DNA of 39,125 bases from Reclinomonas americana ATCC 50394 (taxonomy: Eukaryota), in the NCBI GenBank assembly GCA_048213135.1, contig PS015124.1, positions 48,528 to 87,652 of the forward strand, in the 5' to 3' direction. Of the stretch, positions 473-39,125 are shown in pieces. How positions within the stretch are numbered: the stretch's first letter is position 1; the number at the start of each line of letters is the position of its first letter. The position numbers were made by a program, and so were the translations under genes. A model generated the notes under the pieces. The model was given only the letters and a program-made list of their open reading frames with translations. It was not told where the DNA came from and ran no database searches.

Positions 473-3400
473 ATGTCAAGGCGCCACACGCCCGGTCACA
501 GCTACGAAAGCTGTTGCGCGCGGACACACACACACACACACACACATNNNNNNNNNNNNNNNNNNNNTCCCTCGTGGACCGCACGCGGAGGAGGAGGCGC
601 CAACAACTCGTCCTCGCGCTCCTCCACACCTCCAGCGATGCGATTGGGAGGAGGTGGTGGTGGTGGAGGAGGAGGAGGGTATACTGCGCGGAGTGGGGAA
701 GGCGGGGCGACGATTCTGGGAACGCTGGCCGGCAGCAATGCGGAGAGTGTGGTGGAGGAGGAGAGTCCGTTGTATGTGGCGTGCAGGTGAGGAACGGGAA
801 AGGAGTAAGGGGGAAGGGAAGGAGAAGGTATTCTTTCTGTTGCTCTCAACTCGCGCTTGAACGTTTCGAACTGAGAGAAGGCTGTCTGTCTCTGTGCGCT
901 GTGGGAGAGACGTACAACTGACCCTTGATTGATTCAGAGGAGAGAGGCACTCTTCCTGAAAGACAGTGCAACTCACCTTTGAATATTTTATCTCCTTCTC
1001 TTTTCACTCTCTAATGCACGTCGTGAGGAGATGAGATGTGAAGAGATCGATTTTCTCTCCAGCACCGTTCCTTCGAAGAGACGCGCAACTCACGTTTGAG
1101 CGTTTCGAACTGAGAGAAGGCTGTCTGTCTCTGTGCGCTGTGGGAGAGACGTACAACTGACCTTGAACGATTCAGAGGAGAGAGGCGTTGTCTCTCCCTC
1201 CTCCCTCCTTCACTCTGTGAAGGTGTGTGTCGTGAGGAGATGAGCTATTCTATTTGCATTCTCTTGCGCATTCCCTTTGGAGAGTCGTACAACTCAAGCT
1301 CGAGCACTTCTGAGCTGTAGGAGAGACGCACAACTGACCCTTGAGCAATTCAGAGGATAGGGGCATTGTCTCTCCCTCCTTTCTGTTTCACTTTATGAGA
1401 GTGCACTTCGTGAGGAGAAAGTGTTCCTTCTCTTGCTTTCACTGGCTGCACCTTTCCTGGAGAAAGACCAGCTAACCATTAAGCACTTCGAATGGAAAAA
1501 GGCTGTCTGTCTCTGTGCGCTGTGGGAGAGATGCACAACTGACCCTTGAGCAATTCAGAGGAGAGGCATTCTCTCTCCCTCCTCTCACTTTCACTCTGTA
1601 ACGGTGTGTGTCATGAGGAGATGGGCTGTTCTATTTGCAGTCTCTTGCGCATTCCCTTTGGAGAGTCGTACAACTCACGCTCGAGCACTTATGAGCTGTA
1701 GGAGAGAAGCACAACTGACCCTTGAACAATTCAGAGGAGAGGAGTATTCTCTCACCCTCCTGTCTGTGCACTCTACCTGTGTGTATGTCGAAAGGAAAGA
1801 GCTGCGAAGGGCTTGTTCTCTCGTTCTGTCTTGCGCAACTCAAGGTTGAACATTTCAGGGAAGACATGACTGACGGTCCCGTACTCCCTCTCATTCTCCT
1901 TTTTTCAGCTTGAGCATTGCGGGATAGAGACTGGACTGTCCTTCTTTCTCACCCTCTGTCACGAAGACTTGGGCCTTCTTCACCCTCTCTCCCCTCTCCT
2001 CCCACCCTTGCGACCATGTTTTCTGAACCACCTCCATGCCACAGAGACGGCCGGCTGGATCGAGTGCGATCAATTATTGCCTCCTCACCAAGTGGTTTTG
2101 ATTTGACGCTGGTGAATACTATCTTCTCCCTCTGTCTCCCTCCCCTCCCCTCCCCTATCCTCACCCCCACTCCCACAGGGCAAAGTCTGCCGGTGCACGC
2201 ATCCCGAGGTGGCCACCGACGAAGTCGTGTTGCGCGAGTCACCGCTGTATGTGGCGTGCGTCCACGGTCGTGCCGAGGTATACAATCTCCTCCCCCTTTC
2301 CCCGTCGCCCCACTCCCTTACTCACTGCCCCCCCCCCCCCCCCCACGGTCGCCTCCGAGTTGCTAGCGCACGGAGCACCGCCCGCCATTGGCTGCGCGGA
2401 GCACCGTATCGACGAGTTTGTAGGATCACGGCTCGTGCACAACATTACGTGTCTGTACGGGGCCGTCGATGCCGGCTACCTGGGCGTGGTTGGCCTGTGC
2501 GTCCTTCTGCTTTGCTCCATCCTTGGTGTGCAAGTGCACTCACATTGTCGGCTCTTCAGTTTGCTGGAACACGGAGCCGATCCCAACACCGTGATCGAGC
2601 ATCACCACGAAGTGCGCCTCGCCGACGAGGCTCCATTCACCGAAATCGAGCGCGCCACAGCACTGCATTGTGCAGTGGAGCGCGGGCATTGTGCGTCTGT
2701 TCACCATTCACGATTTCTTTGATTGTCTTCTCACTCCCCTCGCAGTGGAGTGCGCCCGCCTTCTGCTGCGCCACAACGCACAGGTCGAGGAGGTGCAGTA
2801 CTCGTATCTGGAGAATCAACCGGCGCCGGGCGAGTTGGTGACGCAGGAGCGCTCATTCCGACCGGTGCATCTCGCCGCCTATCACGGCCACGATCGACTG
2901 CTGGAGGCGCTGTTGGATCACGGAGCGAGCATCGAATCCAAGTACGTGTGCTCGGTGAATGGGAGAGAGTCGACGGGCACGCCGCTGCATGTGGCGGCGC
3001 AGACCGGGCACGTTGAGGCCGCCAGATTACTGCTGAAGCGGGGAGGTACCGACCGATTGCGACAATGATGTCCATCCACCCCTCGTTGCTGATTCCGTGA
3101 AATTGCGCAGCATTGGTGGATGCCACGGACGGCAACGGACTGACGGCGTTTCTAATGGCGTGCCAGTTGGGCAACTTGGAGATGGCACAGTTTTTGCAGA
3201 GTGCTGGTGCCGATGTCAACTGCAAGACGTGTGATGGGGCCACGGCGTTGTCGGTGAGTGCTGAAAGGGGAAGAGAGGGGGAGGGGAGGGAATNNNNNNN
3301 NNNNNNNNNNNNNNNNNNNNNNNNNNNNNNNNNNNNNNNNNNNNNNNNNNNNNNNNNNNNNNNNNNNNNNNNNNNNNNNNNNNNNNNNNNNNNNNNNNNN

Positions 3401-5096
3401 NNNNNNNNNNNNNNNNNNNNNNNNNNNNNNNNNNNNNNNNNNNNNNNNNNNNNNNNNNNNNNNNNNNNNNNNNNNNNNNNNNNNNNNNNNNNNNNNNNNN
3501 NNNNNNNNNNNNNNNNNNNNNNNNNNNNNNNNNNNNNNNNNNNNNNNNNNNNNNNNNNNNNNNNNNNNNNNNNNNNNNNNNNNNNNNNNNNNNNNNNNNN
3601 NNNNNNNNNNNNNNNNNNNNNNNNNNNNNNNNNNNNNNNNNNNNNNNNNNNNNNNNNNNNNNNNNNNNNNNNNNNNNNNNNNNNNNNNNNNNNNNNNNNN
3701 NNNNNNNNNNNNNNNNNNNNNNNNNNNNNNNNNNNNNNNNNNNNNNNNNNNNNNNNNNNNNNNNNNNNNNNNNNNNNNNNTTCTCCCCCTTTCTCCTTTC
3801 CCCCCTTTCCCCCCTCACCCCCTTCCCACTTTCCCTTCCCCCTTTTCCCCTTCCCCCCTTTCCCACTTCCCGTCCTGTCACAGCTGGCCGACGCCGAGAG
3901 ACACCTCCTCGTCTCGCGCTGGCTGCACTCGAAAACCACCACGGGCCTCCGACTGGACCTGTCGCGCACCAACTCGGAACAAGACGGCGTCGAGCGAGAC
4001 ATTTTCGAAGACATGGACGACGACCTTGGCGGCGGTGGTGGTGGCGGAGGTGGCGGTGGCGGCGCAGCAGCTGTGGCTGCGGCTGCGGCCGCCGCCGCCA
4101 CGGTGGCCGCGACGGTTCCCGAAGTGGTGGGAGAGCAGGATGAGGAGGAATTCAACGGGACGATTGCCACCGACACGCTGTCGACGACGGTGATTCGCGA
4201 GGTGGAGGACGACACGGACGAGGATGAGGTGGGCGGAGAGCATGTACCGCTCTCCTCGTCCAACGACCGAGGTCGCGTGCCACTCGTTGGTCGCCGCCCC
4301 GGTGCACCGACTCCGCCGGCGTCCATGCCTGCCGCTGGAGCGTCGTCACACGCACCGGCCTCCGCCGGCGGTGTGGCTTCTGCAGGACCGCGGGTGAGTC
4401 CTGACAAGGACATCCTCTCTCTCTCTCTTTATCTCACGTGTTTGCGGTCGCCAGCTGGCCCTCTCCAAAGCGCCGGCGCCACCGTCGTCATTGCAACCGC
4501 TGGCACCCCCCGTCAGCGCCATCGCCAGCAAGTCGCGCTCCGCTGGCGCAGCAGACAAGGCCGCGGGCGACGCCAAGAGCAACAATGGCCAGCAGCGGCC
4601 GCGCGATCGGAGCAACAGTTCGCAGGCGCGAGGTCGCATGGAGGCGCGATTTGCGGTCATGATGCGCGAGATGAACCGGAAGATGGCCGAGGTTTGTCAT
4701 CACTGCCGTGTCCTCCTCCTTGCTCCTCCCCTGACCCCCTTTACGTGCGCGCAGCTGGAATCGCGTCTGCGCCACCTGGAGGCCGCCACGGAGAACAGTG
4801 TGAAGGAGAACTCGGCGATTCGCTCGTCGCTGGGTGCACGACCACCGGACCGCGAAGCCGTGTGGAGAGGCAGTTATGCATCGCGTGGGTTCCCGCCAAC
4901 TGTGCCACCGCTGCTCGGTGTGCCGTCGGCTGCGGAGACCGACGACATGGAGGCGAGGCTATCGTCGAGGTTACGCTACTCACCGCGCGACTCGGCCCGC
5001 CCTCTCGCCAGCCGCGCCAGTCCGTATGACGCTAGTGATTTTCGCGTGAGCAGCCACGTCGACCGTGGTCGCTGCGTACGTTGTAATCTGCTGTAG
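473..5096 (+). CDS. Multi-exon ankyrin-repeat protein with low-complexity and short coiled-coil-like C-terminal half (interrupted by N gaps)
   Basis: Spliced exons give repeated ankyrin motifs: ESPLYVACR|DGRLDRV (intron 787-2044), ESPLYVACVHGRAE, TCLYGAVDAGYLGVVGL|LLEHGADPN, TALHCAVERGH|LECARLLLRHNA, TPLHVAAQTGHVEAARLLLKRG|A, TAFLMACQLGNLEMAQFLQSAGADVN. The last exon ends TAG at 5096. The ATG at 473 is tentative because the next acceptor lies in the gap. Confidence 0.85.
855..1870. repeat. Degenerate tandem repeat inside ankyrin intron 787-2044 (about two ~390-bp units plus a partial unit)
   Basis: GGCTGTCTGTCTCTGTGCGCTGTGGGAGAGA recurs at ~880, ~1119 and ~1501. TCTTGCGCATTCCCTTTGGAGAGTCGTACAACTCA recurs at ~1262 and ~1643. 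CAACTGACC(C)TTGA..ATTCAGAGGA occurs five times. Confidence 0.8.
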
Positions 5097-5177
5097 GTCT
5101 ACTTCTTCTTTAAAAGCGCGTGGGAAAAAGGTAGTAACATGCGGAATTCTGTTGTACACTTTCTAAAGCGCAGCTGT

Positions 5178-6179
5178 TCACGAGCTCTTCACGGCACGCT
5201 GGCAGGTGACATGCAGGCGGCTGACCTCGCGCTGGAAGTCATTGTCCAGCGTGTGCGTCAGGCTGCCGTCGTTGGGCAGACCGGCGTCCTGGATCTTGCT
5301 GACAATGTTGCGGCGCTCGGCGGACCAGATGCCAGAGAGAGCGCGCTCGGCTTGCAGGCACGCAGTGCGCACGGCATCGGTGTCACCGCGGATGCTCTTG
5401 TCGTTGGCCTTGGCGCGTCCCTTGTCGCCGGCAATGTGCAGGGCGCGAATGGCACGGCGAGTGCGGTGGTAGATCTCCTCCAGAGTCACGTCGCGGTCGA
5501 GGTAGCGGTGGACAGGGTCAGCTGCAGCAGGCAAGAAGAGAGAGAGGTGTGAGTGGAGGTGGCGGGCAAGGGCAAAGGAGAGGAAAGGCGAGACAACGCA
5601 ACAGACGGGGTGCTGGTTGAGGTTCAGTTCGTTGTGGCGAATGTCTCCGGGGCGGTTCTCAATGTCCTGCACCGACAGGTTGCGGTTGTCGTACGGACGA
5701 GGTCCACGAGTGACTGCNNNNNNNNNNNNNNNNNNNNNNNNNNNNNNNNNNNNNNNNNNNNNNNNNNNNNNNNNNNNNNNNNNNNNNNNNNNNNNNNNNN
5801 NNNNNNNNNNNNNNNNNNNNNNNNNNNNNNNNNNNNNNNNNNNNNNNNNNNNNNNNNNNNNNNNNNNNNNNNNNNNNNNNNNNNNNNNNNNNNNNNNNNN
5901 NNNNNNNNNNNNNNNNNNNNNNNNNNNNNNNNNNNNNNNNNNNNNNNNNNNNNNNNNNNNNNNNNNNNNNNNNNNNNNNNNNNNNNNNNNNNNNNNNNNN
6001 NNNNNNNNNNNNNNNNNNNNNNNNNNAAGGGGACATACAAGTGTGTGTGAGTGTGGTGGGAGGGGGAGGAGGGAGGAGGGAGGGGAGTGAGGGAGAACGG
6101 AACTGCCATCACCACGGGCACTGACGGTCACGGCCACGAGGCACAAGACCAGAGCAAAGACGAGAGTCGAGCGGATCAT
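5178..6179 (-). CDS. Secreted protein A, family 1 (unknown function, ~175 aa, 3 exons)
   Basis: Signal peptide MIRSTLVFALVLCLVAVTVSA, then ITRGPRPYDNRNL...HPV|SDPVHRYLDRDVTLEEIYHRTRRAIRALH...CQRAVKSS*. Intron 1 spans a gap; the structure is confirmed by the ungapped copy at 9718-10396. Confidence 0.85.
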   Translation of the reverse strand: MIRSTLVFALVLCLVAVTVSARGDGSSVLPHSPPSSLLPLPPHSHTLVCPLXXXXXXXXXXXXXXXXXXXXXXXXXXXXXXXXXXXXXXXXXXXXXXXXXXXXXXXXXXXXXXXXXXXXXXXXXXXXXXXXXXXXXXXXXXXXXXXXXXXXXXXAVTRGPRPYDNRNLSVQDIENRPGDIRHNELNLNQHPVCCVVSPFLSFALARHLHSHLSLFLPAAADPVHRYLDRDVTLEEIYHRTRRAIRALHIAGDKGRAKANDKSIRGDTDAVRTACLQAERALSGIWSAERRNIVSKIQDAGLPNDGSLTHTLDNDFQREVSRLHVTCQRAVKSS

Positions 6180-6807
6180 GGTAGTGTCTGGGTTGGGCTG
6201 GTGGTCTGCGCTCGCAACACAAGGCTAAAGGCAAGTGGTGATCGCTTCCGGCTATTGGCAGGAATTGATCCGGACTATTCGCGCTGCGATGGTTGGACAC
6301 TACCACTGTGTCCGAAATGTAAGCCGCTCACTCTCTCACCTTGCATGCAAGCAGGCTAGCAGGCAAGAAGACCACTGCTTCCATTCAGTGCTATCGCCAT
6401 TGTCGATCACTGTGCTGGTGCAGAGAAAGCAGAATCGTGCAAGCAGTACCGGTTTTTCAGTGCAAGTGTGTTCGGTCCGATTATCGACCGAAGTCGAGAC
6501 ATGCGACCAGCCTCGCGTGCGCCGAAGAGAATGGTGGAACACTGGGGGGATAGATGCACTTGTACACGCAATCTTAAAGATCTCTGTGCTTGACTTGACG
6601 GCCAAGCTGCGGAATGCGGACAACTCATGTAGTCGGCAGAAGCTGGGTCCAGATTTAACAGGAGACGTGTCCATGCACCACCGCGTAGCTGCACGAAGGC
6701 ACCACCACTGTGTGTGTTGCGAGAGGAAGAAATCCGATTCATTGTCACCTCTGAATCAAATTTGGAAATACTGGTTTTCTTTCAGTCGAGGTGTGAGCAA
6801 AGGAGAC

Positions 6808-6992
6808 ATGCGCGCTGTGTTGATCATCGCCGTGACTGTCTGCCTGTTGGCGGTGGTCGCGAGTGCTGCAAGTTGCGCGCACACACTCTATCAGCTCGCC
6901 ATCACCACAGCACTCATGATCACTTGCTTTTTCTCCTTGCGTGCAGTTCCTCGTCACCGACACAGGCGCAACTTTGTGAATCGTTGAGTATG

Positions 6993-7033
<41 letters not shown>

Positions 7034-7619
7034 GAGAGAGAGTGTGAGAGAGAGAGAGAGTNNNNNNNNNNNNNNNNNNNNAGAGAGAGAGAGAGGAATG
7101 TGTGAGAGAGAGAGAGTGATCACTCATCGACAAGCCACTCATTGTCTCACCCTCGCACAGCCTTCCGTGGAAGCCACGGCGAGGGCCCTCGTGCGCGCTT
7201 CACCTGTTGCGTGACGCACACACACTAATGTCTCCCTCGCATCACACCTTTGCTCACATCGCGATGCACACGCGAACGAAACAGCCGTGCCCGGTCGTGC
7301 CTACAATCGCTTCCTCGACAACCGCGCCACCCTCCGCGATGCATACCTGCGTCACCTGCCCGGCAAGCTGCGTCGCGAGGCCGTCTACCACGAGCTGTTT
7401 GAGCGCGATGCACGTCTGCGTGCTCGTCGCGATGGAGTGTCCGACGAGGACTTTGACACGGCAGTGCCCGGATTCAGTGGCCACCGTCTTCGTCGCCACC
7501 GCCGCTTGTCGCACGCCGAGGCTCCGTCTGCGCGACAACTCAGCTGCGGCAATGGCGGATGCGACACACGTCGTCGGTGCGCCAATGAGCGTCGCCGTTG
7601 GCTCGCCAATGCGTGGTAG
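6808..7619 (+). CDS. Secreted Arg-rich protein B, family 2 (unknown function, 4 exons)
   Basis: Signal peptide MRAVLIIAVTVCLLAVVASAA. Phase-1 introns with GTTGCG, GTTGAG and GTTGCG donors join IPRHRHRRNFVN|PFRGSHGEGPRARFT|SVPGRAYNRFLDNRATL...CANERRRWLANAW*. Confidence 0.8.
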
Positions 7620-7739
7620 AGATATCGATGAGTGGTGGTAGATTGATGTCAAAGTTTTGTTTGCTTGTTGCCGTCCCTTTTTTTCAATGAATTGAATCTT
7701 GTTTTGCACCCACACCTCGTGGTGCCTAATGCGCATCGA

Positions 7740-7838
7740 GGCCGCGCTCCATCCGCCCTCACACCAGCTACACTCTGTTGCGCGAACGAGCGCTGTGACG
7801 AACAGCGTCGCCGGTGGTTGGCCGGTGCTTGGTGATGA
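7740..7838 (+). pseudogene. 3' remnant of gene D left in duplication copy 1
   Basis: Encodes ANERCDEQRRRWLAGAW** and is followed by the same downstream sequence as D (13148 onward), but the upstream D exons are absent. Confidence 0.8.
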
Positions 7839-8237
7839 AATTCTTGGAGGAAGTGTGTGAATTATGTTTTGCATTGTAGTTGCTGGTGTTGTTGTTGTTA
7901 TCGCTGCTACACCAGTCTTGCTCGTGGCTGCTCTTCTCGGTAACTCGGCTGTTTCTCCATGGCCACATCACCGTCATGATCGTGCGCGATCGACAGCATT
8001 GCATTTTGCAACTGTTGGCACTTGCCCACGAACAGCAAGGTAGCAGAGCTGTCGTTGGACATGCCCATCCTGACAGACCAGCGCAAGCACAGTGGCATCA
8101 CTTCTTACACAGGTCCTGGACACGAGAAAACCAATGCAATGCAATGTATGTGCTGCGTTCAGTTTCGCACGTTGCTCATCGAATTCACACTGGCTTTGTT
8201 TGTTTGCTTTTGGTTCGACAGTGGAGAAGAGGAAACC

Positions 8238-8993
8238 ATGCGCACCACCACCTGTGTTCTCGTGTTGACTCTCAGCCTGCTGGCGGTGGCCTCACAAGCC
8301 GCAAGTTGCGCGCGACTCATTCTTTGACAGCGACAACTGTGTGGTCCCTCTCTCACACACTCGCGTACCATCCCCCACACACAGTCCTCCGCGGTCCTCG
8401 TGCCTATGACAACCGTAACCTCTCGGTCGCCCAGATCGAGAATCGACCAGGCGACAGTTGCGTGACCACACCAACACAACACAACGCTGATGAGCGATAT
8501 CAAAACTCATCAGTTTCGTACGCTCACTTCAACACACAGTTCGTCACGTCGAGCTCAACCAGGACCGCCACCCTGTCTGTTGCGTCTATCCACCACCCAT
8601 CGCAGACACTGCATCCCTCTGCAATCCACTCACCCTCCCACTCCCGCAGCGACACCGACCCACCGCTTCCTCGATCGCGATGTGACGCTGGAGGAGATTT
8701 ACCACCGCTCGCGCCGCGCCATTCGTGCGCTGCATGTGCAGGGTGAGCGTCTGCGCCACCAAGTGGCCGGCATCTCTCCAGCTGGCGACACGGACGCCAT
8801 TCGTGCGGCGTGCCTGAGTGCGGAGCGTGCACTGGACGAGACGTGGGCAGCGGCGCGTGACGGCATTGTGCACAAGAGCATTGACGCTGGCCTGCCCAAC
8901 GACGGCACCCTCACACACACGCTCGACGACAACCACCAGCGTGAGATCAGCCGTCTGCATGTGGCGTGCCAGCGCGCGCAGCACAGCTCGTAA
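8238..8993 (+). CDS. Secreted protein C, family 1 (~173 aa, 4 exons)
   Basis: Signal peptide MRTTTCVLVLTLSLLAVASQAA. GTTGCG donors at 8305, 8457 and 8579 give ILRGPRAYDNRNL...RPGD|IRHVELNQDRHPV|STPTHRFLDRDVTLEEIYHRSRRAIRALH...CQRAQHSS*, colinear with A. Confidence 0.85.
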
Positions 8994-9231
8994 TTTCCGA
9001 GAGACCAAGACCAAGAAGCGTTGTCAATCGTCGCGCGCCATACATGTGCCGCACAGCAGTAATGTACGTACTGGTAATAGCATACATCGCGGTGGGGGGA
9101 GGAGAGGAGGAGCGGAGGAGTAGAAGAGAGAGTGAGGGAAGCAGAGCTCGAGTGAGGGAAGCGCAACATGTACAGAGAGAGTGAGAATGCAATGGGAGAG
9201 AGAGAGAGTAAGAGAGAGACACACACACACA

Positions 9232-9264
<33 letters not shown>

Positions 9265-9717
9265 GGATAGAGATGGAGGGAGGGAGAGAGGTGAGAGTGG
9301 TGCACTGGCAGCAGCCACGCGTGCACACTCACACTCATCACCGAATTGCAAGCGAGTGAGTGGACGACTGGTGACGAACTGTCAGCATCAGAATCGAAAT
9401 GTCACACTCCATCAGTCAGGAATGGACGCCTGAGAGGCTGTTCATGTAGCATTACCATTACCATCTCTCTCTTCTCTTGTACATCTTCCTCACGCCACGA
9501 GACCACGTGTACATTGTTCGATATTTGGAATACTGGTGCATGTGCTGGAGAAGTTATCTTCGTCACTGCCGACTGCATGCCTTGATGACGGAGTCTATCT
9601 AGTGCAGGCGACAACAGCAGTCTTAGCATTCAACGCAGCCAACCATTGCGCAGCAGGTGAAAAGTGGACAGGTAAAACATGCGGAATTCTGTTGTACACT
9701 TTCTAAAGCGCAGCTGT

Positions 9718-10396
9718 TCACGAGCTCTTCACGGCACGCTGGCAGGTGACGTGCAGGCGGCTGACCTCGCGCTGGAAGTCATTGTCCAGCGTGTGTGTCA
9801 GGCTGCCGTCGTTGGGCAGACCGGCGTCCTGGATCTTGCTGACAATGTTGCGGCGCTCAGCGGACCAGATGCCAGAGAGAGCGCGCTCGGCCTGCAGACA
9901 CACAGTGCGGACGGCATCGGTGTCACCGCGGATGCTCTTGTCGTTGGCCTTGGCGCGTCCCTTGTCGCCGGCAATGTGCAGGGCACGAATGGCACGGCGA
10001 GTGCGGTGGTAGATCTCCTCCAGAGTCACGTCGCGGTCGAGGTAGCGGTGGACAGGGTCAGCTGCAGCAGGCAAGGAAAGAGAGAGGCATGAGTGGAGGT
10101 GGCGGGCAAGGGCAAAGGAGAGGAAAGGCGAGACAACGCAACAGACGGGGTGCTGGTTGAGGTTCAGTTCGTTGTGGCGAATGTCTCCGGGGCGGTTCTC
10201 AATGTCCTGCACCGACAGGTTGCGGTTGTCGTACGGACGAGGTCCACGAGTGACTGCGCGAGGGGACGCAAAGTGAGTGAGTGAGTGGAGGGAGATGGGG
10301 AGGAGAGAGGAGAACGGAACTGCCATCACCACGGGCACTGACGGTCACGGCCACGAGGCACAAGACCAGAGCAAAGACGAGAGTCGAGCGGATCAT
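9718..10396 (-). CDS. Secreted protein A' (duplicate of A)
   Basis: Ungapped 3-exon copy with donors A|GTTCCG and T|GTTGCG. The protein differs from A at VRTVC vs VRTAC in the visible sequence. Confidence 0.88.
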
Positions 10397-11029
10397 GGTG
10401 GCTTCTGGGTTGGGGCTGGTGGTCTGCGCTCGCACACACAAGGCTAAAGGCAAGTGATGGTCGCTTCCGGCTATTGGCAGGAATTGATCCGGACTATTCG
10501 CGCTGCGATGGTTGGACACAGCCGCCGTGTCCGAAATGTAAGCCGCTCACTCTCTCACCCTGCATGCAAGCAGGCAAAAAGGCAAGAAGACTACTGCTTC
10601 CATTCAGTGCTATCGCCACTGTCGATCACTGTGCTGGTGCAGAGAAAGCAGAATCGTGCAAGCAGTACCGGTTTTTCAGTGCAACTGTGTTCGGTCCCAT
10701 TATCGACCGAAGTCGAGACATGCGACCAGCCTCGCGTGCACTGCAAGCGCGTGGTGGAACACTCGGGGGAATAGATGCACTTGTACACGCAATCTTAATG
10801 ATCTTTGTGCTTGACGTGACGGCCAAGCTGCGGAATGCGGACAACTCGTGTAGCCGGCAGAAGCTGGGTCCAGATTTAACAGGAGACGTGTCCATGCACC
10901 ACCGCGTAGCTGCACGAAGGCACCATACCACTTGTGTGTGTTGCGAGAGGAAGAAATCCGATTCATTGTCACCTCAGAATCAAATTAGGAAATACTGGTT
11001 TTCTTTCAGTCGACGTGTGAGCAAAGGAC

Positions 11030-11760
11030 ATGCGCGCTGTGTTGATCATCGCCGTGACTGTCTGCCTGTTGGCGGTGGTCGCGAGTGCTGCAAGTTGCGC
11101 GCACACACTCTATCAGCTCGCCATCACCACAGCGCACTCACTTGCTTTTTAAATTTCTCCTTGCGTGCAGTCCCTCGTCACCGACACAGGCGCAACTTTG
11201 TGAATCGTTGAGTATGCGAGAGAGACAGAGAGAGAGACAGAGACAGAGAGGAGTGATCACTCATCGACAAGCCACTCACTCTCTCTCTCCCTCTCACCCT
11301 CACACAGCATTGCGTGGAAGCCACGGCGAGGGCCCTCGTGCGCGCTTCACCTGTTGCGTGACGCACACACACTTATGTCTCCCTTGCATCACACCGTCGC
11401 TCACATCGCGATGCACACGACACAGCCGTGCCCGGTCGTGCCTACAATCGCTTCCTCGACAACCGCGCCACTCTCCGCGATGCATACCTGCGTCACCTGC
11501 CCGGTAAGCTGCGTCGCGAGGCCGTCTACCACGAGCTGTTTGAGCGTGATGCACGTCTGCGTGCTCGTCGCGATGGAGTGTCCGACGAGGACTTTGACAC
11601 GGCAGTGCCCGGATTCAGTGGCCACCGTCTTCGTCGCCACCGCCGCTTGTCGCACGCCGAGGGTCCGTCTGCGCGACAGCTCGGCTGCGGCAATGGCGGG
11701 TGCGACACACGTCGTCGGTGCGCCAATGAGCGTCGCCGTTGGCTCGCCAATGCGTGGTAG
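11030..11760 (+). CDS. Secreted protein B' (duplicate of B)
   Basis: Same 4-exon structure as B with a few substitutions (PLRGSH, HAEGPS, QLGCG); ends WLANAW*. Confidence 0.82.
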
Positions 11761-12170
11761 AGATATCGATGAGTGGTGGTAGATCGATATCAAAGTTTTG
11801 TTTGCTTGTTGCCGTCCCTTTTCTTCAATGAATTCAATCATGTTTTGCATCCACTTCTCGTGGTGACACAACTGTGCGCATGCAAGTCGCATGCCAGCAA
11901 TCAAAAACTGCAGAATCGCGAGCAGTAGTTGCAAGATGTGCGCGAGGTGAACGAATCCTGGAAGAAAGTTGGGCGTGCATGCCAGTCGATTTGTCCGCAG
12001 CGCACAGCAGGTGAGTGGATATGTTCGCAGCGTGCAGCAGGTGAGAGTGTACACAGCCGGCTCGTGATATTGTCGTTTTGTTATTCGCGATTACGGTTAC
12101 CGTAGTGTAATATGAAATACGTTTCGTGAGTTATTTCGGACGTGAGGAGAAGAACAGGAGAAGTCAAACC

Positions 12171-17134: not shown

Positions 17135-17216
<82 letters not shown>

Positions 17217-20897: not shown

Positions 20898-21100
20898 ATC
20901 ACAAAGACAATGACACAATGTGACAGTCCGCTCAACAAAGCCGACCTTGCCTGTTTAAGCGCTGGAGAAGGGGATTCGGCAACGGCTCGTAAAATCACAG
21001 ACACTACGGAATTTCACTGAAGAGAGAGAATGAGAGATTGAAAACAAGTGGCACTCACGACACCAGCGCGCGTGAGGCGATGTACAGACAACGATGACGA

Positions 21101-29500: not shown

Positions 29501-30729
29501 ACTGGCCGACAGCGCGAGCGCGCACCACGTAGCCAGTGTTCGGCTGCAGAATGCCGGACGAGGCGGTGGCACCAGTGCCAGACACCACGCACGACTGCTG
29601 CGAGAAGGGAGAGGCATTGAACGGCAGAATCGCCGCGTTGGCGTTGTTGCCGTTGGTGGTCTCAGTGTAGAAGGTCACCGGGGTCCAGGCGTTGATGGAG
29701 GTGCCGGTCGAGCTGCGGATCTGTACCTGGAAGAAGGGAGTCTGCAGCTGGTTGAAGTTCGAGTTGCCGGTGCCGGTGGCGCCAGTCTGGCCGAGCTTGA
29801 TCGGCGGGTAGAACGACAGCACAAACGAGGTGGCAGCCGTGTAGTTGATGGCCAGGCTCGTCGGCTGGCGCGGGGTACCGCCGAGCGGCACCGTCACGAC
29901 CTGCGACGAGGTGCGGACGCCCTCACCGTACAGGTTGACCGAGTAGGCCTGTTGGTGGGAGAAGAGAGGACATGAGTGGGGGAGAGGTGGTAAGATGGGA
30001 GGGGAGGAATGAAGGAGACGCAACAGCGATGGTGTACTGCACGCCCTCCTGGATGTTCTGGTCAAAGTAACGCAGAATCAGGCCGTAGCAGCCGTTGCCG
30101 CCGGTCGAGGGGCCACCATTGGGGACAATGGCGTTGACCGACGAGCACTGTTGGTGGAGGTGAGCAGAGGAGAGGAGAGAGGGGAGGGAGCAGGCAAGGA
30201 GACGCAACAGTGTACTTGGTGGTGCCACCAGTGCTGGTCACGTCGACACCGAACTCGGTGGGCGGCGCGTTGCCCTGGTTGATGGGGGTCGTCCAGTTGA
30301 CCCAGATGGCCGACTGCGAGCCAGTCGGGGAGGAAGTGTCGAGATCTGCCAAAAAGGAGAGAACAAGAGTGAGTGAGGAGGAATGCACACACGCACGAGA
30401 GAGAGAGAGGGAGAGAGAGGGTGAATTGCACGCACCATCCTCTCCCACAGCCTTGATAATCTGGAATTGCTCCGGCGCGTTAGAGCTGCCAGGGGCAAAA
30501 GTGGTGGTCTGGGCGTCTGTGGAGGACGGGAACGTCAGTTGGACACGTTTACAACAGAAAACAAACACGCACACTCGTACAGTCGGATGCAAAAGATGCA
30601 TCCCACAAAGTGGCGATCGAGTCGCCACGGAATCACCGTCTCGCCATCACATGTGCGACATGCAAACTCACCAGCCAAGAGGACTGCGCCGAGGAGCACG
30701 AGGCACACGATGGAGAGGAGCCAACGCAT
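23530..30729 (-). CDS. Large (~2,200 aa, 8 exons) Thr/Ala/Ser/Gly/Asn-rich fibronectin type III repeat surface glycoprotein, probably GPI-anchored
   Basis: Signal peptide MRWLLSIVCLVLLGAVLLA. FN3 signatures include LQPNTGYVVRARAVGQWG, LLPGRQY, LTANTSYTYQVYA, LNSNTKYRIGVASYNG, LTDATNYFIDVRGINGIG and LQPGTPYVVNVRAVNSYG. It has many N-x-S/T sequons and ends in a hydrophobic tail with no cytosolic part (LWTVVLMAIAALLAFAF*). All seven introns restore frame. Confidence 0.88.
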
Positions 30730-32377: not shown

Positions 32378-32431
<54 letters not shown>

Positions 32432-33956
32432 CTCCTNNNNNNNNNNNNNNNNNNNNNNNNNNNNNNNNNNNNNNNNNNNNNNNNNNNNNNNNNNNNNNNN
32501 NNNNNNNNNNNNNNNNNNNNNNNNNNNNNNNNNNNNNNNNNNNNNNNNNNNNNNNNNNNNNNNNNNNNNNNNNNNNNNNNNNNNNNNNNNNNNNNNNNNN
32601 NNNNNNNNNNNNNNNNNNNNNNNNNNNNNNNNNNNNNNNNNNNNNNNNNNNNNNNNNNNNNNNNNNNNNNNNNNNNNNNNNNNNNNNNNNNNNNNNNNNN
32701 NNNNNNNNNNNNNNNNNNNNNNNNNNNNNNNNNNNNNNNNNNNNNNNNNNNNNNNNNNNNNNNNNNNNNNNNNNNNNNNNNNNNNNNNNNNNNNNNNNNN
32801 NNNNNNNNNNNNNNNNNNNNNNNNNNNNNNNNNNNNNNNNNNNNNNNNNNNNNNNNNNNNNNNNNNNNNNNNNNNNNNNNNNNNNNNNNNNNNNNNNNNN
32901 NNNNNNNNNNNNNNNNNNNNNNNNNNNNNNNNNNNNNNNNNNNNNNNNNNNNNNNNNNNNNNNNNNNNNNNNNNNNNNNNNNNNNNNNNNNNNNNNNNNN
33001 NNNNNNNNNNNNNNNNNNNNNNNNNNNNNNNNNNNNNNNNNNNNNNNNNNNNNNNNNNNNNNNNNNNNNNNNNNNNNNNNNNNNNNNNNNNNNNNNNNNN
33101 NNNNNNNNNNNNNNNNNNNNNNNNNNNNNNNNNNNNNNNNNNNNNNNNNNNNNNNNNNNNNNNNNNNNNNNNNNNNNNNNNNNNNNNNNNNNNNNNNNNN
33201 NNNNNNNNNNNNNNNNNNNNNNNNNNNNNNNNNNNNAAGGGGTCAAAGGAGAGGATGAGTGACTGAGGAAGAGTGTTGCATTATGATGCTATGATTCTGT
33301 CACTCTTGCATCTTCCGACCCACTCTTCTTCAGTGTCGCCTGCTCTCCTTTGCTCCTTCCTCACCCCCCCCCCCTCTCGCTCTCTCTTTCTCATCGCATA
33401 TTCCGGCTGAGGATCGCAAGTTGCAGTGAGATACTGAGAGAGAGAATGAGAGAGCGAGAGAGAGAGACAAGTCAACGAGGAAGCATAGAGTGACTGAGTC
33501 TGACTGCTTGTTGTCTTGCATGCAACAAGCTGCAGTGAGATGCTGAGAGAATGAGAGACAGACACAGACAAACGTGCAGCGAGAGAGACAAGTCAACGAG
33601 GAAGCATAGAGTGACTGAGTCTGACTTTGTGTTATCTTGCATGCTGAGGATCACAAGCTGCAGCGAGGTGTTGAGAGAGAGGCAGATAGACTGAGAGAGG
33701 GCAAGAGAAAGAGTGACTGCGACTGAGTGTGGTGGTATCGGAATGGAGAGACACACACACCAGCACACGCAGACTGACAACAATTGATCTTTCTCGCTCT
33801 TCTTTGACTTGTCTCCTCTCTCTCTCTTGTCTCTCGTCGCAGTTTGAGGATCGGAAGAGGCAACGAGAGGCACAACAAAAGCCAATGTTTGGCTTCTTGC
33901 AACGCAAGGAATCTCCGGCGCCGACAGCTCCTCCGGAGAGTGATCGCAGCAAGTGA
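31189..33956 (+). CDS. Possible small multi-exon gene of unknown function spanning the 32437-33236 gap
   Basis: A plausible terminal exon at 33843-33956 follows a pyrimidine tract and CGCAG (FEDRKRQREAQQKPMFGFLQRK...SK*). A candidate first exon reads MASRAP...LLRV|GTGAGT, and a candidate internal exon lies near 31755-31822. Linkage between them is unproven. Confidence 0.3.
32040..32430. repeat. Compound microsatellite (GAGT)n/(GT)n/(CT)n bordering an assembly gap
   Basis: Directly visible. Similar (AG)n/(AC)n/(CCCTTC)n tracts occur at ~6996-7115, 9190-9260, 17136-17242 and 19500-19610. Confidence 0.95.
33405..33675. repeat. Short imperfect tandem duplication, 120-bp spacing
   Basis: GAGAGAGACAAGTCAACGAGGAAGCATAGAGTGACTGAGTCTGACT occurs at ~33461 and ~33581; CAAG.TGCAG.GAG occurs three times. 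Confidence 0.75.
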
Positions 33957-34031
33957 GGAGTTTTGCGTTTTTTTTTTTTAATCTCTCAGTGATAAAAAAA
34001 GGGATGGCGAGTCGTTAAGTGCGGCGGTGGA

Positions 34032-37000
34032 TTAGAGCACGACTCCGGCGGCGTCGAGATGCACAGGTGGTTCTGGGATCACTTCGCTGTCCGGCACCGG
34101 TTTGATCTGCAACCGGGAGGTGTCAGAAGCAGCAATGGTGCAAGGAAAGGAAGACGTCGAAGAGTCACTCGCTCTCTGTGCACACATGCGCACAGTGCAG
34201 GGGAATAGCCTCGCTGAACACACACACATACACGCAAACACGCCATGCGTGCAATGGAGAACAACAGCTTCGCTGAATTCGCATTTGTGGGAGTGTAGCT
34301 CTCCCTCGCTTTCTTGCTCTCTCTCTCTCTCTTCACGCACACACACAGTGGAGAACAACAGCCTCGCAGAAGTTGCATGAACACGCTCTCCGTGTGAGTC
34401 TGTCTGGCTTCATGCACGCAGTGAAGGACAACAGCTTCGCTGAATTTGCCAGCGGGGGAATGTAACCTCCCCGCACTCTGCATGCACTCACACACTCACT
34501 CCCTCTCTCACTCCCTCTCTCACATACCCACTCACTCCCTCACTCNNNNNNNNNNNNNNNNNNNNNNNNNNNNNNNNNNNNNNNNNNNNNNNNNNNNNNN
34601 NNNNNNNNNNNNNNNNNNNNNNNNNNNNNNNNNNNNNNNNNNNNNNNNNNNNNNNNNGCTCCCTCATTCTCTCTCTCTCTCTCTCTCTTTTCACTCGCAC
34701 GTGCGCGCCAAACTACAAACTCCGTTTCTCTTCCCCCAACTCACCATGCAAACATACACCCACACCGCCAGCACCTGGTTACGATACGCCTCCTGCGGTT
34801 GACAAGAGAGTGAGAAAACGCACGCATTCTTCGCACACTCCATAATGCGTACCAAGTGCACAGCAAAGCAAAACTGGACGTCCTTCGTTTTGTCTTCGTG
34901 AATGGGGTAGTTCTTCATGACCCACTGGAGAGGCAGAGAGGAGTGTCAGAATGAAATCCACAACAGACCTTCCCTCTCATCAGCGCACCTTGCGAATGCG
35001 AATCTCATCATAGTATGCAAAGCAGAATGCACGGCCCTCAAAATCGTGCCCCTTTGGCACCGCCTCTTGCAGCACACCCTTCCACGCATCGAGATCTGGT
35101 ACACGCACACGGGTGAGAAGGAGGAGGCGATGACAGCGAAGCCCTCTGCAGGAAAAAAACACACACACACCCCAATCCAAAATCTTGGTTCGAATGGAGC
35201 GCATCTCCTGCAACAAGTGCTTCCACTCCGCCGCCTGCTCCTTGGTGAGATTCTCACGCGGCAGCGCGGCGAGCTTTGCCTGGCACTCCTCCAGTTGCCT
35301 CTTTGGTTTCAGGCGGTCCTCCGGAGCCATGACGCGCAATCTGTGGCACGCACGACGAGAAATAATGAGGGCGGAGAATGTGAAAGATCGGTCTGCGATG
35401 AAAAACGAACTTTTCCATAATGCGCAGGCCCTGTCGCAAGGTCTTGTTCAACTCCAAGAACAGCTTCGTCTCCAGATGGTACTTGTTGCGCCACACGAAA
35501 TACGACACTGGGGAGGGAGAGAGAGACGTGAGAAGTCTTGTCAACAAGAAAGAAGATTGTTTTGCCAACGCACATTGCAACTCCTTCTGGATGCAGTCCG
35601 TGTAGGAGCGAACGCGATATACAGGGAACCGTGGCCGCAACGGAGTCTCGCGGTAGAAGGCCACAATGTGTCGTCGCAAGTGCGTCTGCAAATGGGCAGT
35701 CAGCAAGCTGGCAACGAGCATAATAATATTCATGCACGCGCTCAAACTTGATCTTTCCCCTCCTTTGCTCTCTCACTGCTCTATCGCTCTCACTTGCGTG
35801 TTCATTCACTACCATTCTTCACACACACCCCCTATTCGCCTCTCCTCCACTTCGCTCCATTCCGCGCGCTCGCCTTCTCACCTCTGTCCCCTTTTCATCA
35901 TTCCCTAACTCTCTCTCGTCTCTCAGCCACGCTCTCAGCTTCCATTTCTTTCTTCACGAATGTTCTTCCGTTTTCCCCCCTTTGCTTTCGTTGTACTCCT
36001 CGCGCCTACTTTCTAACCTCCTCGCCTCAATTCTCTCAGCCGCACGCTCAGCACCTCCTTCACACCCCTTCCCCTCCCTCCTCCTCCACTTCCGCTTCTC
36101 CCTACCTCCTTCCCCACCTTTCCCTCATCCCTTTCCCTCCCCCTCCCCCCTCCCTTTCCTCCCTTTCCCGCACGCAACAAATCGCGGATCATCGGGGATG
36201 AACGGCACCCACCGCGCCTCATCCTCCAAATCAAACTTGATGTGGTTCGGTCGCTCTTCCTGCGCATTCGCCCACAGATTCGTGTGGTTGAACACGACAT
36301 AGATCTTGGCGTACGGCACCGGTACGTGCACCAGAGGCTCCTCCAAACCACCCGAGTGCGCTTGCAGTGTCTGCTCACAGCGGCGCGTGAGAAGAGTTCA
36401 CACGAGGCGAGAAGCATGAGAGAGAGAGAGGGACTCACGTAGCGCCCATCAGAGCCGCGAGCAGTCACTGGCTTCACCACCGGTGCCGCACGGCCGACCA
36501 TAATGTCGTCCTCGTTCAACTCGTCCGACAGCACCTCACGCATCTCCAAGTACATGTCACCGGGGAAGATGATCATGTCCTCGTCACGCGCCTGAAACAC
36601 ACGCCATATTAGACAGGGGCAGTGAGTGGATGGGGGAAAGGAAAAAAAACGCAACATATGCGACATCGGCTTCGGCAGCCGCTGGAGATATCAACATGAG
36701 AGTCAGTAAAGCACATTCGCTACCACACACATTCACATTGAGAGAGACACACCTTGCGTTTCCTCTTCAGTGGGCTTCTGTACACCGACCCATCTCTCCG
36801 GAAGCTGCATTCAACAAAAGTGAGTCTTCTTCACCTTCCTGCGCAGACGCGCGCCAGACTCACCAAATAGTGCTTGCCGCTCGAGGTCTCCCAGAAAATG
36901 ACAGAACCGTCATCCTCGCGCGTCATCACCCACGTGTGCTCCACTCCAGTCGATGTCTCGCCAATACACAAATACGCCTCCACTCCGCGGTATCGCTCCA

Positions 37001-39125
37001 GACCCAGCATGAGATTGCACTATTGCTCATACGCATGAGGGGGATGCTGAATACAAAGCCACTCCCACCCCATTCGAGGCACGTACCATCAAAATCGCGT
37101 GATCCTCCGAATCGCCCTTGCGCTGATTCTGGAAGAACTCGGGCGTGGTCCAAATGTCGTCGTGCCCAGCAAAAATGTTCTCGTCCGTGTCCCACGTCAT
37201 GAGGCTGATCATGCGTGCAATGATACGCGGCTCACGTGTGTCTGCGCCAAGATTGACATGAGTGAACCGGAAGATCACACGCGGTATTTGAATGATGGTG
37301 GCGACGCACCGCGCGGGACTGGCAACTCCGGCGGCAACACGTACGACGGCAGGAAGCGGTCCATCAACTTCTCGTCCTTGCGCACCACCGGGAAGCGCGC
37401 CGTAATGCCGCGCGTCTTCATCTCGGCGTGCCACGTCTTGTCACGCTCCAAAATGTCGTCCGGCACCTTGTAGTGCGGGTCGAACACAGGATCGGGATCG
37501 TCCTCAAAGTCGATGCGTGGACCGAGATCTGTGGCACGCCAATGGTCAGCAACCAGGAAGCAGCGAGGGGAAAATACAATATGAGCAGCACCTTGGATAA
37601 AGTAGGCGCTGAATGTGACTTTCTGGTCGGCCTCCGGATGGAACGGGTTGACGAGTTTCAGCGTGCCCTGGAACATGCGCGTGGTCTCGCCACTGCGCTC
37701 CGTGTACGCCGACTTGTTGGCCTTCAGAATGCTGGAGACAGCTGTGGGGATAGCAAACAGTATACCGGTGAGATGATGCGGCTGTTAACTTCCTCGTTTT
37801 GCGATATTACGCACATAACCGCACAGTGCCCAGCAAATCATTGCCGTCCTTGTCCTCGTCAAACACCTCCAACTGAATCTTACCCTTGGCCTTGAACTCG
37901 TCCGGCGACTTGTCGATAAAGAGCACAGGGAAGTATAGCTTGGTGTCGAAGCGCGGATCCAGCTTCTCCGTGATTGTCTGCGCAGTGGGATGAGCATAAC
38001 TGTGCGGTGGAGTGGTGACTCTTCCGTGGAGGGCAGACGCAACTCTTGTGCGATACTGCATGCCGTCGTAGCTGACGACGACAAACGCATCCGAGTACAA
38101 CGAGGCGTCCGCCGCAATCAGATTCTGGCACGACTGAACGTGCACGGCGAGGTACGTGTGCCACGGCTTCAGCGTATCTGTGAAGCAGAGTCAGTATTGC
38201 AGAAGTGTAGAACGTATGAGTTGGAGTGGCGGGCGCAACAGAATTCGCCAGCCTGAATGTAGCGCGGACTGGACAGCAGGTTCACACTGCCCTGCAACAC
38301 ACCACCCGGTGTTCGTTTCCGACCCTCCACGTGCACTGCAATGGACGCGAGTATAAAGTGAGGGCGTCGAGTTTTGTAATGGCAGGGGAGAGAGCGCGAC
38401 GCACCAAGACGACATTGCAACATTTGCGTGTCCACCACACCACGCAGGGGCAGCAAACGCTCGCCAATCTTCACATCGCGTGTGCGGTTCCAGTCAAACA
38501 CCTGTACATCCAGATCCTCGTTCTCCAGCTCGCTCATGGTCCCGTAGTATGTCACCGAGCCCAACGTGTCCCACACAGGCTCGCTGCGGTGGCACACAAG
38601 GTGAGTCGAACGTGTATGTCGCGCGAAGGCAGTCCACACACGACGTACGTTGTCTGATAAATGACTGGCGACTGGAGGCCGCGGCCATAGAAACCGCCCA
38701 GCTTCTTCCATTTCCTCCAGTCCCTGCAGGAGAATGTCAGCTCACATCGACAACAGTTCGCCGACACACACATCCATCCACTCACCGCTTGATGACGAGC
38801 TTCACGTACGGATCCGAGACCAACTCTGCCTGCCCCTCCTTCCGGTCGACACCGACAATCTCGCGACCGGTCCAATCGTCGAAACTCATCACAAACTGGA
38901 ACATCTCCTGGAACATGATCTCAAAGTCGAGCTTCATCACGATCGGTGAGGAGGGGTGCGAGTCAAGGTGTGAGACGGAAGGGGAAGAGAAAGATGATGA
39001 TGATGATGGGAAATGAAGGATATCATTGCCGTCGCTGGCACCCGGTGGTGCGCGCAGCTCCACCGACTGCTGCACCTCGCCCGACGCAATGTCCACCAGC
39101 TTGGTGCGCGAGAAGCCCTTCAGCT
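34032..39125 (-). CDS. C2-domain protein of the CEP76/CC2D2A (MKS6) family with transglutaminase-like domain; 5' end outside the window
   Basis: C2 motifs: SDPYVKLVI, VQVFDWN, ADASLYSDAFVVV, LEVFDEDKDGNDLLG. Family core: WTTPEFFQNQRKGDSEDHAILM|CNLMLG...AYLCIG...HTWVMT...FWETSSGKHY and PYAKIYVVFNHTNLWAN. C-terminal QFCFAVHL|EAYRNQVLAVWVYV. About 21 introns in the window. Exact orthology is not assignable by eye. Confidence 0.88.
38946..39023 (-). other. U12-type (minor spliceosome) AT-AC intron, 78 nt
   Basis: On the minus strand: 5' end ATATCCTTC, branch-site-like CCTTGAC with its A at 38963, and 3' end CTCAC. The tract contains no AG. Removal gives GN|AIVMKLDFE. Confidence 0.88.

Follow-up and report, generated by a model that had tools for sequence, protein, structure and literature searches.

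Must the point at which an intron is cut and the point from which its 5' splice site is read always keep the same distance from each other? This question is raised by a stretch of 39,125 bases of eukaryotic nuclear DNA from Reclinomonas americana ATCC 50394 (contig PS015124.1, positions 48,528 to 87,652), hereafter called the window, which holds about 13 genes together with N gaps and (GA)n and (CA)n runs, and whose mostly short, CT-rich introns begin with one of two kinds of splice donor. A sequence-only reading of this stretch had proposed that the kind of donor is predicted by the last base of the preceding exon (position -1) and that donors with an extra base after their GT are read by the U1 small nuclear ribonucleoprotein (snRNP) in a register moved one base downstream (+1). 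Judged from the sequence, two donor classes split by the -1 base are confirmed as real in this window, and the register shift is partly supported.

Two donor classes differ in the last exon base

We defined the shifted class by the pattern GTT[GAT][AC]G, which divides the 64 confident donors of our gene models into 28 shifted and 36 ordinary ones; three low-confidence ordinary donors (F13, B'1, and J18) were kept out of the main comparison. The heptamers of the shifted class are GTTGCGT (16), GTTGCGC (5), GTTGAGT (3), GTTTCGT (2), GTTGCGA (1), and GTTACGC (1), and the commonest ordinary donors are GTGCGT (8) and GTGAGT (7). At position -1 the shifted donors have T in 12, A in 11, C in 4, and G in a single case, the ordinary ones G in 29, T in 4, C in 2, and A in 1, and for G this difference (1/28 versus 29/36) corresponds to a Fisher p of 1.6e-10. 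The earlier hand tally (T 13, A 12, C 3, and G 1 of 29 shifted donors; about 34 of about 41 ordinary donors after G) is borne out by this recount, also if the low-confidence donors are included (G in 30/39).

The association persists after collapsing paralogous and duplicated introns to 21 shifted donors (one G, p = 1.9e-8), within the conserved genes A, F, G, and J alone (G at -1 in 0/11 shifted versus 26/33 ordinary donors, p = 4e-6), and with the class redefined as every GTT donor (4/32 versus 26/32, p = 4e-8) or as GTTGCG only (1/22 versus 29/42, p = 6e-7). Given codon-position composition, 9.8 shifted donors would be expected to follow G, in comparison to the one seen (P = 8.5e-5). As a model-free check we considered all sense-strand GTTG[AC]G strings within genes, 32 of 41 being donors and 2 of 41 following G, while elsewhere 10 of 40 follow G. 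Between the diverged tandem gene copies, the donor heptamer is under constraint, with 0 differences in 42 positions versus 12.2% in the intron interiors (P = 0.004).

The rule is asymmetric, with a shifted donor implying a non-G exon end (27/28) and an exon-final G implying an ordinary donor (29/30), while a non-G exon end is followed by a shifted donor only in 27 of 34 cases. The claim that non-G exon ends use the shifted donor consequently covers these 27 but is worded too strongly for the other seven, which take the ordinary donors T|GTGCGT (four times), C|GTACGT, C|GTGAGT, and A|GTTCGT. Similarly, C had been counted at position -2 in about half of the shifted donors; the count itself is correct (13/28) but does not rise above expectation (9.5 expected, P = 0.11).

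Gene models and placement of the exon ends

The 13 gene models behind these counts were drawn up independently of the earlier donor list and were rebuilt, from sequence only, on the basis of reading frames, Pfam domains, and two homologues. They comprise an ankyrin-repeat protein (gene A), the tandem copies B/B', C/C', and D/D', the further single models B'' and E, a protein with an FHA domain that we took as Nbs1-like (gene F), gamma-tubulin (gene G, 21100-22706, minus strand), a surface protein of 2,180 residues with an fn3 match (gene H, 23530-30729, minus strand), and a protein with a C2 domain and a CEP76/CC2D2A-type peptidase-like domain (gene J). In the giant gene H, a codon-score dynamic programme without any donor model predicted six introns, five of which start with GTTGCG; a run with acceptor and length priors and flat donors also picked this donor for introns of genes B, D, B'', and J. 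In a later gene-finder run a bonus was given to intron-side motifs only, the exon bases (-1) never being scored, and every gene was finally curated by eye on three-frame views. Every final model is open from start to stop, and the 66 modelled introns are all GT...AG.

In two genes the exon ends can be compared with homologues. Those of gamma-tubulin, the closest match of which is 76% identical over one exon, were set by tblastn of the homologues P0002 and P0014, whose alignments skip 21 and 24 codons precisely where two introns lie. Two assembly gaps of 20 N each interrupt this gene and conceal the parts corresponding to homologue residues 17-53 and 148-367; the assembly is incomplete or collapsed at this site. 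For gene J, an HMMER library search with one exon yielded only 2 proteins among 1.84 billion representatives, P0122 being the useful one, and other single-exon queries for homologues gave no match; a pattern search for gene J relatives in metagenome contigs returned 381 matches, none of them confirmed. P0122 aligns with the spliced gene J model in one high-scoring segment pair of 858 columns with 49% identity, and 16 of 19 junctions lie within gap-free segments of +/-8 residues. The junctions 38404, 36752, and 36655 have gaps nearby, and 36438 is gap-free yet poorly conserved. The Ank, FHA, C2, and CEP76-peptidase profiles are interrupted mid-domain by exon ends, as expected.

Cleavage at the GT preserves the reading frame in all 27 complete shifted introns. 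Conserved residues span the shifted junctions 38239, 38043, 36178, and 21878, consistent with a cut at this position, and at 38239 joining of the split codon yields a Tyr that is conserved in the homologue. Moving both boundaries by +1 would abolish the CAG acceptor and remove this Tyr, so that such a parse was rejected; we consider the GT-AG parse of the shifted introns to be correct.

Exon-side preferences are displaced by one base

Position -1 of the shifted donors (A 11, C 4, G 1, T 12) resembles position -2 of the ordinary G-ending donors (A 9, C 7, G 1, T 12; chi-square p = 0.80). The same displacement is found one base further upstream, since shifted -2 does not differ from ordinary -3 (p = 0.33) while it differs from ordinary -2 (p = 0.015). 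At ordinary -2, G is seen in 1/36 with 11.3 expected, and T is as common as A. The exon-side preferences being displaced by one base, whatever reads the exon end together with TGCGT would therefore sit one base downstream on shifted donors. This displacement agrees with a +1 register and argues against a register with a bulged U, in which G-1 stays paired. As a separate observation, the G avoidance and the similar frequencies of T and A at ordinary -2 are not predicted by pairing to U10 of U1.

We therefore lean, if only slightly, toward the explanation that an early 5' splice-site reader, presumably the U1 snRNP, is placed in a +1 register on the shifted class. The pentamer TGCGT, representing positions +2 to +6 of the ordinary donor GTGCGT, would be presented one base further from the cleavage site in GT-TGCGT. 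U1 snRNP would dock one nucleotide downstream of its normal register, the G+1 of the intron would occupy the slot of the exonic G-1, and the catalytic core would still cleave at the sole GU, which precedes the U1-defined junction by one base. With G+1 in the G-1 slot, the exon-final G would become dispensable in the shifted class and would even be avoided, as it is at ordinary -2.

Duplex energies were computed with the canonical U1 5' end AUACUUACCUG (PMC4856993), the canonical U1 string also being given as ACUUACCUG. The mean best energy of the shifted donors is -0.14 kcal/mol in the canonical, -0.91 in the shifted, and -0.71 in the bulged register, in comparison to -5.96 for ordinary donors. 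In the canonical register 27 of 28 shifted donors are at 0 kcal/mol; the shifted register beats it in 11/28, and 3/28 fall below -3 kcal/mol. Since the canonical U1 5' end fails for the GCG core, either U1 position 5 (perhaps also 6) would be altered or an extra factor would read TGCGT. In a scan of all 16 base pairs at U1 positions 5-6, G5 brings the shifted donors to -4.4 to -6.0 kcal/mol in the +1 register, with 24/28 below -3 kcal/mol, and also improves the ordinary donors to -7.2 to -7.5 kcal/mol. Quite tentatively, and with more doubt than we attach to the register itself, the lineage may have a U1 or U1 variant with G in place of pseudouridine at position 5 and perhaps C at position 6, whose UGCGU anchor could lie directly after GU or one base further, with approximately 40% of the introns routinely read at +1.

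Several results weigh against the +1 register or its U1 version. The refutation that the sequence-only reading had offered, an absence of pairing gain in the shifted register, comes close to what we find, as 17/28 shifted donors show no such gain and the mean gain stays below 1 kcal/mol with canonical U1. The ratio of GCG to GAG is 22:3 in shifted and 9:11 in ordinary donors (p = 0.003), where the canonical pseudouridine at position 5 would favor A, and the exon-side slot facing U10 has T as often as A, unlike what simple pairing would give. The G5 variant was fitted to the donors it explains and is therefore a prediction rather than a finding; a search of metagenome contigs for a U1 pattern (G5 plus the loop-I motif) gave 27 matches, about the number due to chance, with 0/27 recognized as U1 by Rfam. 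Furthermore, a single 39-kilobase window with many paralogous introns forms the entire data set. Of the proposed U1 register, the exon-side displacement stands, while canonical-U1 pairing as its cause is not supported.

Shared intron features and rival explanations

Apart from the donor, both classes look alike. The acceptor has C at -3 (CAG) in 25/25 shifted and 35/38 ordinary introns without N, CTCAC/CTGAC-like branch motifs are present in both, the median length is 74 nucleotides (nt) for shifted versus 66.5 nt for ordinary introns, and the composition, including pyrimidine content, is alike. The same acceptor, branch motif, and composition and the similar lengths therefore argue for one machinery serving both classes, and not for U12-type splicing. 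U12-type introns form a second donor class with its own small nuclear RNA (snRNA), a /RTATCCTT donor, and an TCCTTAAC-like branch site near the 3' end. The likeness to the present case lies in two discrete donor classes within the same genes, one of them with a long rigid consensus; U12-type introns make up <1% of introns, whereas here the second class amounts to approximately 40% and the CAG acceptor and a CTSAC branch-like motif occur in both. As candidates, U12-type introns were rejected, with neither their donor nor their branch site found in the donor or 3'-end lists.

A mobile intron family was considered in a similar manner. Introner or transposon-derived intron families, reportedly described by Huff and colleagues in 2016 and by Gozashti and colleagues in 2022, likewise provide many introns with an identical 5' end that are enriched in lineage-specific genes, and shifted donors do account for 17/20 donors in the lineage-specific genes B, C, D, E, and H versus 11/44 in the conserved genes A, F, G, and J (p = 8.6e-6, paralogues uncollapsed). 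In contrast to introners, the interiors of the shifted introns are not similar beyond background, their lengths do not form a separate mode, and neither terminal repeats nor target-site duplications could be seen by eye. The mean local score of intron interiors is 14.8 for shifted pairs, 14.0 for ordinary pairs, 14.3 for mixed pairs, and 12.7 for shuffled sequences, and the top-scoring pairs are low-complexity matches across classes. Since two shifted introns do not resemble each other in their interiors more than any other two introns do, an introner or mobile family was rejected. The bias to lineage-specific genes could reflect younger introns, which is compatible with the recognition model and also feeds a rival based on origin.

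In this rival, the classes would differ in origin and not in reading: shifted introns would have been gained more recently, entering non-G sites with an invariant 5' end, while old introns would keep a G|GT proto-splice site. The enrichment in lineage-specific genes and the uniform heptamer fit such an origin, but the interior scores, the lengths and composition shared with ordinary introns, and the missing target-site duplications speak against it, and under neutral drift neither G avoidance nor the heptamer would persist by virtue of origin alone, whereas the heptamer is conserved between diverged copies. We regard this account as improbable, although it can coexist with the +1 register. Somewhat less doubtful, yet still unlikely, is a dedicated second reader, i.e., a variant U1 or other small RNA with a 5' end complementary to GUUGCGU, in which case the non-G at -1 would be the flank rule of that RNA. 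The discreteness of the classes with few intermediates, the absence of any register in which canonical U1 pairs with the shifted heptamer, and the far higher uniformity of the latter (22/28 GTTGCG[TCA] versus 19 hexamers among 36 ordinary donors) would be well explained by such an RNA. Under an independent reader, however, it would be a coincidence that the exon-side profile is the ordinary one moved by one base and that the commonest ordinary donor carries the same core, TGCGT, at +2 to +6; in addition, the 3' signals are common to both classes, and Rfam finds no RNA family in the whole window, hence no snRNA, nor was an RNA of the required kind seen there.

Canonical U1 might also bind in its normal register with the extra U at +2/+3 bulged out. 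Bulged-nucleotide registers between 5' splice sites and U1 were reportedly described by Roca and colleagues in 2012. The shifted motif can indeed be written as GTGCGT with one inserted T; with a bulge, however, C9 of U1 is free for G-1, which predicts G at a position where it is seen in 1/28, and the bulged register is the best one in 0/28 donors, so that we find this explanation less probable again than a difference in origin. Bulged-nucleotide and asymmetric-loop registers, including a bulge at +3 (or +2), are documented for human sites (Tan et al. 2016, PMC4856993). Compared with the consensus, such sites and ours both have an additional intronic nucleotide close to +3, but in a bulge register -1 stays paired to C9. 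The least credible alternative, to which we give hardly any weight, is an artefact of hand-drawn boundaries or base composition without a real second class. Gene models of this kind, donor classes that were partly bonus-scored in the later gene finder, and the paralogy of several introns leave room for it; yet the runs without a donor model already took GTTGCG, the bonus concerned intron bases only, homologues fix junctions in gamma-tubulin and gene J, the association persists when only the conserved genes are considered, and GTTGCG is enriched and used on the sense strand.

The +1 register itself has a human counterpart in 5' splice sites reported by Roca and Krainer 2009 (via Tan et al. 2016, PMC4856993), where they are called atypical sites. 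Like the donors described here, they have an extra base after GU, place G+1 in the G-1 slot, and are cut at GU. A tested human example, ACA|GUCAAGUAU, is complementary to U1 with -6.5 kcal/mol (PMC4856993), whereas the core GUUGCGU has two mismatches to canonical U1 and reaches only approximately -0.9 kcal/mol. Atypical in human genes by that account, the arrangement covers 28/64 donors here with G-1 almost fully excluded. For the tunicate Fritillaria, in which many 5' splice sites pair poorly with a conserved U1 5' end, a shifted register has been discussed as a possibility (Soo et al. 2026, PMC13326754); most introns there have lost GT, whereas here GT-AG is retained and the donor is displaced by exactly one base, in step with the exon end. 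A search of main texts for GUUGCG/GTTGCG as a published splice donor gave only primers and unrelated sequences among the matches listed.

Positions of the shifted donors

Donors are given below with the last exon base in lower case before the bar. On the plus strand, gene C contains C1 (6872-6946, a|GTTGCGC; copy 11094-11170, first 7 nt identical), C2 (6983-7160, c|GTTGAGT, N gap inside; copy at 11207; short upstream exon of moderate confidence), and C3 (7206-7284, t|GTTGCGT; copy 11353-11425), and gene D contains D1 (8305-8384, a|GTTGCGC; copy 13606-13683), D2 (8457-8539, a|GTTGCGT; copy 13756-13838), and D3 (8579-8649, t|GTTGCGT; copy 13878-13945). All six are phase 1 and keep the frame; C3 and the three introns of gene D are further supported by copy comparison, D2 also by the flat-donor run. 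On the minus strand, the flat-donor run found the phase 1, frame-keeping introns B'2 (10062-10142, t|GTTGCGT; copy 5522-5602, with copy comparison), B''2 (15616-15705, a|GTTGAGT), and B''1 (15775-15857, a|GTTGCGC). Three-frame curation placed E2 (12400-12463, t|GTTGCGT) and E3 (12533-12604, t|GTTGAGT) on the plus strand, both phase 1 with the frame kept; the following E4 (12698-12785, plus strand, g|GTTGCGT), the sole shifted donor after G, belongs to the only GT/AG pair preserving the frame of the last exon.

Gene F carries five shifted introns on the plus strand, all from three-frame curation with the frame kept: F7 (18272-18345, c|GTTGCGT, phase 2), F8 (18451-18517, t|GTTTCGT, phase 2), F9 (18651-18871, a|GTTGCGA, phase 0, N gap inside), F10 (19106-19669, c|GTTGCGT, phase 0, long and CT-rich), and F14 (20373-20431, c|GTTGCGT, phase 2). 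The remaining ones are on the minus strand. In gamma-tubulin, G3 (21818-21878, a|GTTTCGT, phase 0) keeps the frame with homologues aligning LEPR|VIN across it, and G2 is represented by its donor only (22588-22594, a|GTTACGC), the next exon falling into an assembly gap; here the exon ends at homologue residue 16 and this is the only GT. The run without a donor model gave, with the frame kept, H7 (25671-25803, a|GTTGCGT, phase 1), H6 (27805-27873, a|GTTGCGC, phase 1), H5 (29405-29477, t|GTTGCGT, phase 0), H4 (29949-30024, t|GTTGCGT, phase 0), and H3 (30148-30208, t|GTTGCGT, phase 0). In gene J, alignment with P0122 is gap-free at J15 (35686-36178, t|GTTGCGT, phase 0, 9/17 residues identical), J6 (37978-38043, a|GTTGCGT, phase 0, 11/17 identical, the preceding exon ending at C2 profile position 40/104), and J5 (38178-38239, t|GTTGCGC, phase 1, 13/17 identical, the split codon being that of the conserved Tyr), while J13 (36592-36655, t|GTTGCGT, phase 0) keeps the frame in a variable, gapped alignment region and has weaker support.

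Further sites matching this class were noticed outside the modelled introns. Sense-strand exonic GTTGCG not used as a donor occurs at 2229, 13063 (copy 7777), 17685, 19075, and 20481 on the plus and at 35641 on the minus strand, the one at 17685 lying 38 nt upstream of the real donor 17723; these sites may be cryptic or alternative donors. A candidate intron in the 5' untranslated region of gene C (6716-6784; copy from 10940) has t|GTTGCGAG as its shifted donor and ends in a good acceptor immediately ahead of the start codon, and a candidate shifted donor at 513, upstream of gene A, would open an intron entering an N gap.

Positions of the ordinary donors

The seven ordinary donors after a base other than G are found in genes A and J. 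On the plus strand, splicing of A4 (2497-2559, t|GTGCGT) restores the ankyrin helix GYLGVVGLLLEHGA, and the exon before A5 (2691-2745, t|GTGCGT) ends at Ank profile position 14/33 with the repeat continuing in the next exon. The five minus-strand cases are gap-free against P0122, namely J3 (38584-38648, c|GTACGT, 9/17 identical), J7 (37742-37814, t|GTGCGT, 10/17), J14 (36371-36438, c|GTGAGT, frame kept, only 2/17), J16 (35508-35573, t|GTGCGT, 8/17), and J17 (35341-35410, a|GTTCGT, 6/17), the last being classed as ordinary because of its G at +5.

The other introns of gene A, on the plus strand and all keeping the frame, are A1 (787-2044, g|GTGAGG, 1258 nt with internal repeats), A2 (2112-2178, g|GTGAAT), A3 (2278-2359, g|GTATAC, with the less certain acceptor GAG), and A6 (3046-3110, g|GTACCG, also fitting the Ank profile), which come from three-frame curation, as well as A7 (3254-3883, g|GTGAGT, N gap inside), A8 (4394-4454, g|GTGAGT), and A9 (4692-4754, g|GTTTGT), the last being in-frame and stop-free and found in the flat-donor run. 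Within A1, several copies of a segment of ~60-100 nt were seen by eye, while Tandem Repeats Finder reported no array. Three-frame curation with the frame kept also supports, on the same strand, E1 (12250-12345, g|GTAAAC), F1 (16528-16586, g|GTAAAC), F2 (16644-16715, g|GTGAGC), F3 (16762-16823, g|GTATGA), F6 (17723-18189, g|GTGAGT), F11 (19755-19812, g|GTTTGT), and F12 (19922-19984, g|GTAACA); the frame is kept as well at F5 (17387-17636, plus strand, g|GTGAGG), where the preceding exon ends the FHA profile at 67/67.

On the minus strand, gamma-tubulin has three frame-keeping ordinary introns, G5 (21237-21300, g|GTTTAC) being supported by tblastn (SSR|EIVQ), G4 (21643-21714, g|GTGCGT) by the 24-codon and G1 (22617-22679, g|GTGAGA) by the 21-codon tblastn gap. 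In gene H, H2 (30346-30435, g|GTGCGT) was found in the flat-donor run and, like H1 (30517-30671, g|GTGAGT), which follows the signal peptide, was placed by three-frame curation with the frame kept. Gene J contributes, also on this strand, the gap-free junctions J20 (34793-34852, g|GTACGC, 11/17 identical), J19 (34925-34988, g|GTGCGC, 11/17), J11 (36805-36863, g|GTGAGT, 11/17), and J10 (37020-37086, g|GTACGT, acceptor TAG, 16/17); J9 (37242-37309, g|GTGCGT), J4 (38336-38404, g|GTGCGT), and J2 (38724-38785, g|GTGAGT) follow from the P0122 alignment, J8 (37529-37591, g|GTGCTG, in-frame and stop-free) from a 21-codon gap versus P0122, and J12 (36682-36752, g|GTGTGT) keeps the frame in a variable region.

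Among the low-confidence donors, F13 (20115-20160, plus strand, t|GTGTCT) forms the only in-phase GT/AG pair joining two frames; with 46 nt it is shorter than every other intron in the window (at least 55 nt). For B'1 (10254-10338, minus strand) the donor is a|GTGCCC at 10338 or a|GTTCCG at 10320, both in phase, and for J18 (35096-35170, minus strand, P0122 alignment) it lies within a (GT)n run, g|GTGTGT being preferred.

Further features of the genes

A tandem duplication of ~4.5 kilobases (5100-9700 and 9660-14300) contains the genes B, C, and D twice. The coding sequences of D and D' differ in 12/522 bases, the intron interiors in ~12%. Gene E is present only in the second unit, and a last-exon remnant with the same GTTGCGCGA stretch lies at ~7770-7835. 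A family of small, secreted-looking proteins is encoded at 5178-6179, 6808-7619, 8238-8993, 9718-10396, 12171-13147, and 15266-15945, with a signal-peptide-like start followed by RGPRxYDNRNL (B, D, B'') or GRAYNRFLDNR (C); the C and E proteins have similar ends (RRRWLA[NG]AW). This family gave no Pfam match, and ESM Atlas, queried with the last exon of D, no usable one. The gene H protein (~2,180 residues) starts with a signal-peptide-like segment, ends in a hydrophobic C-terminal tail, and gives a weak match to fn3 (E = 2e-4); T, S, G, A, N, and V are abundant in it. Codon bias is much stronger in this gene than in the neighbouring ones. At 33240-33960, repeated units with GAGGATCGCAAGTTGCAG-like strings stand ahead of a short terminal exon (33843-33956); these units, beside an 800-N gap, may be decayed or alternative exon copies.

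Significance of a displaced donor

The U1 5' end and the G|GU junction belong to the most conserved features of eukaryotic gene expression, and to our knowledge shifted registers are known solely as rare exceptions in human genes. In the organism studied here such a register would serve a major share of the donors, with another core and a strict dependence on the exon end. If a retuned U1 is indeed responsible, the exon-final G would be dispensable and introns would be able to follow any base. For annotation this means that gene finders trained on G|GTRAGT models will miss or misplace shifted introns in this organism. A one-base-displaced donor in about four of ten introns, combined with a near-absolute exon-end rule, would represent a natural experiment separating U1 binding from the cut site; such a genome would show a relaxation of the coding constraint on exon ends and may show co-evolution of an snRNA with its sites.

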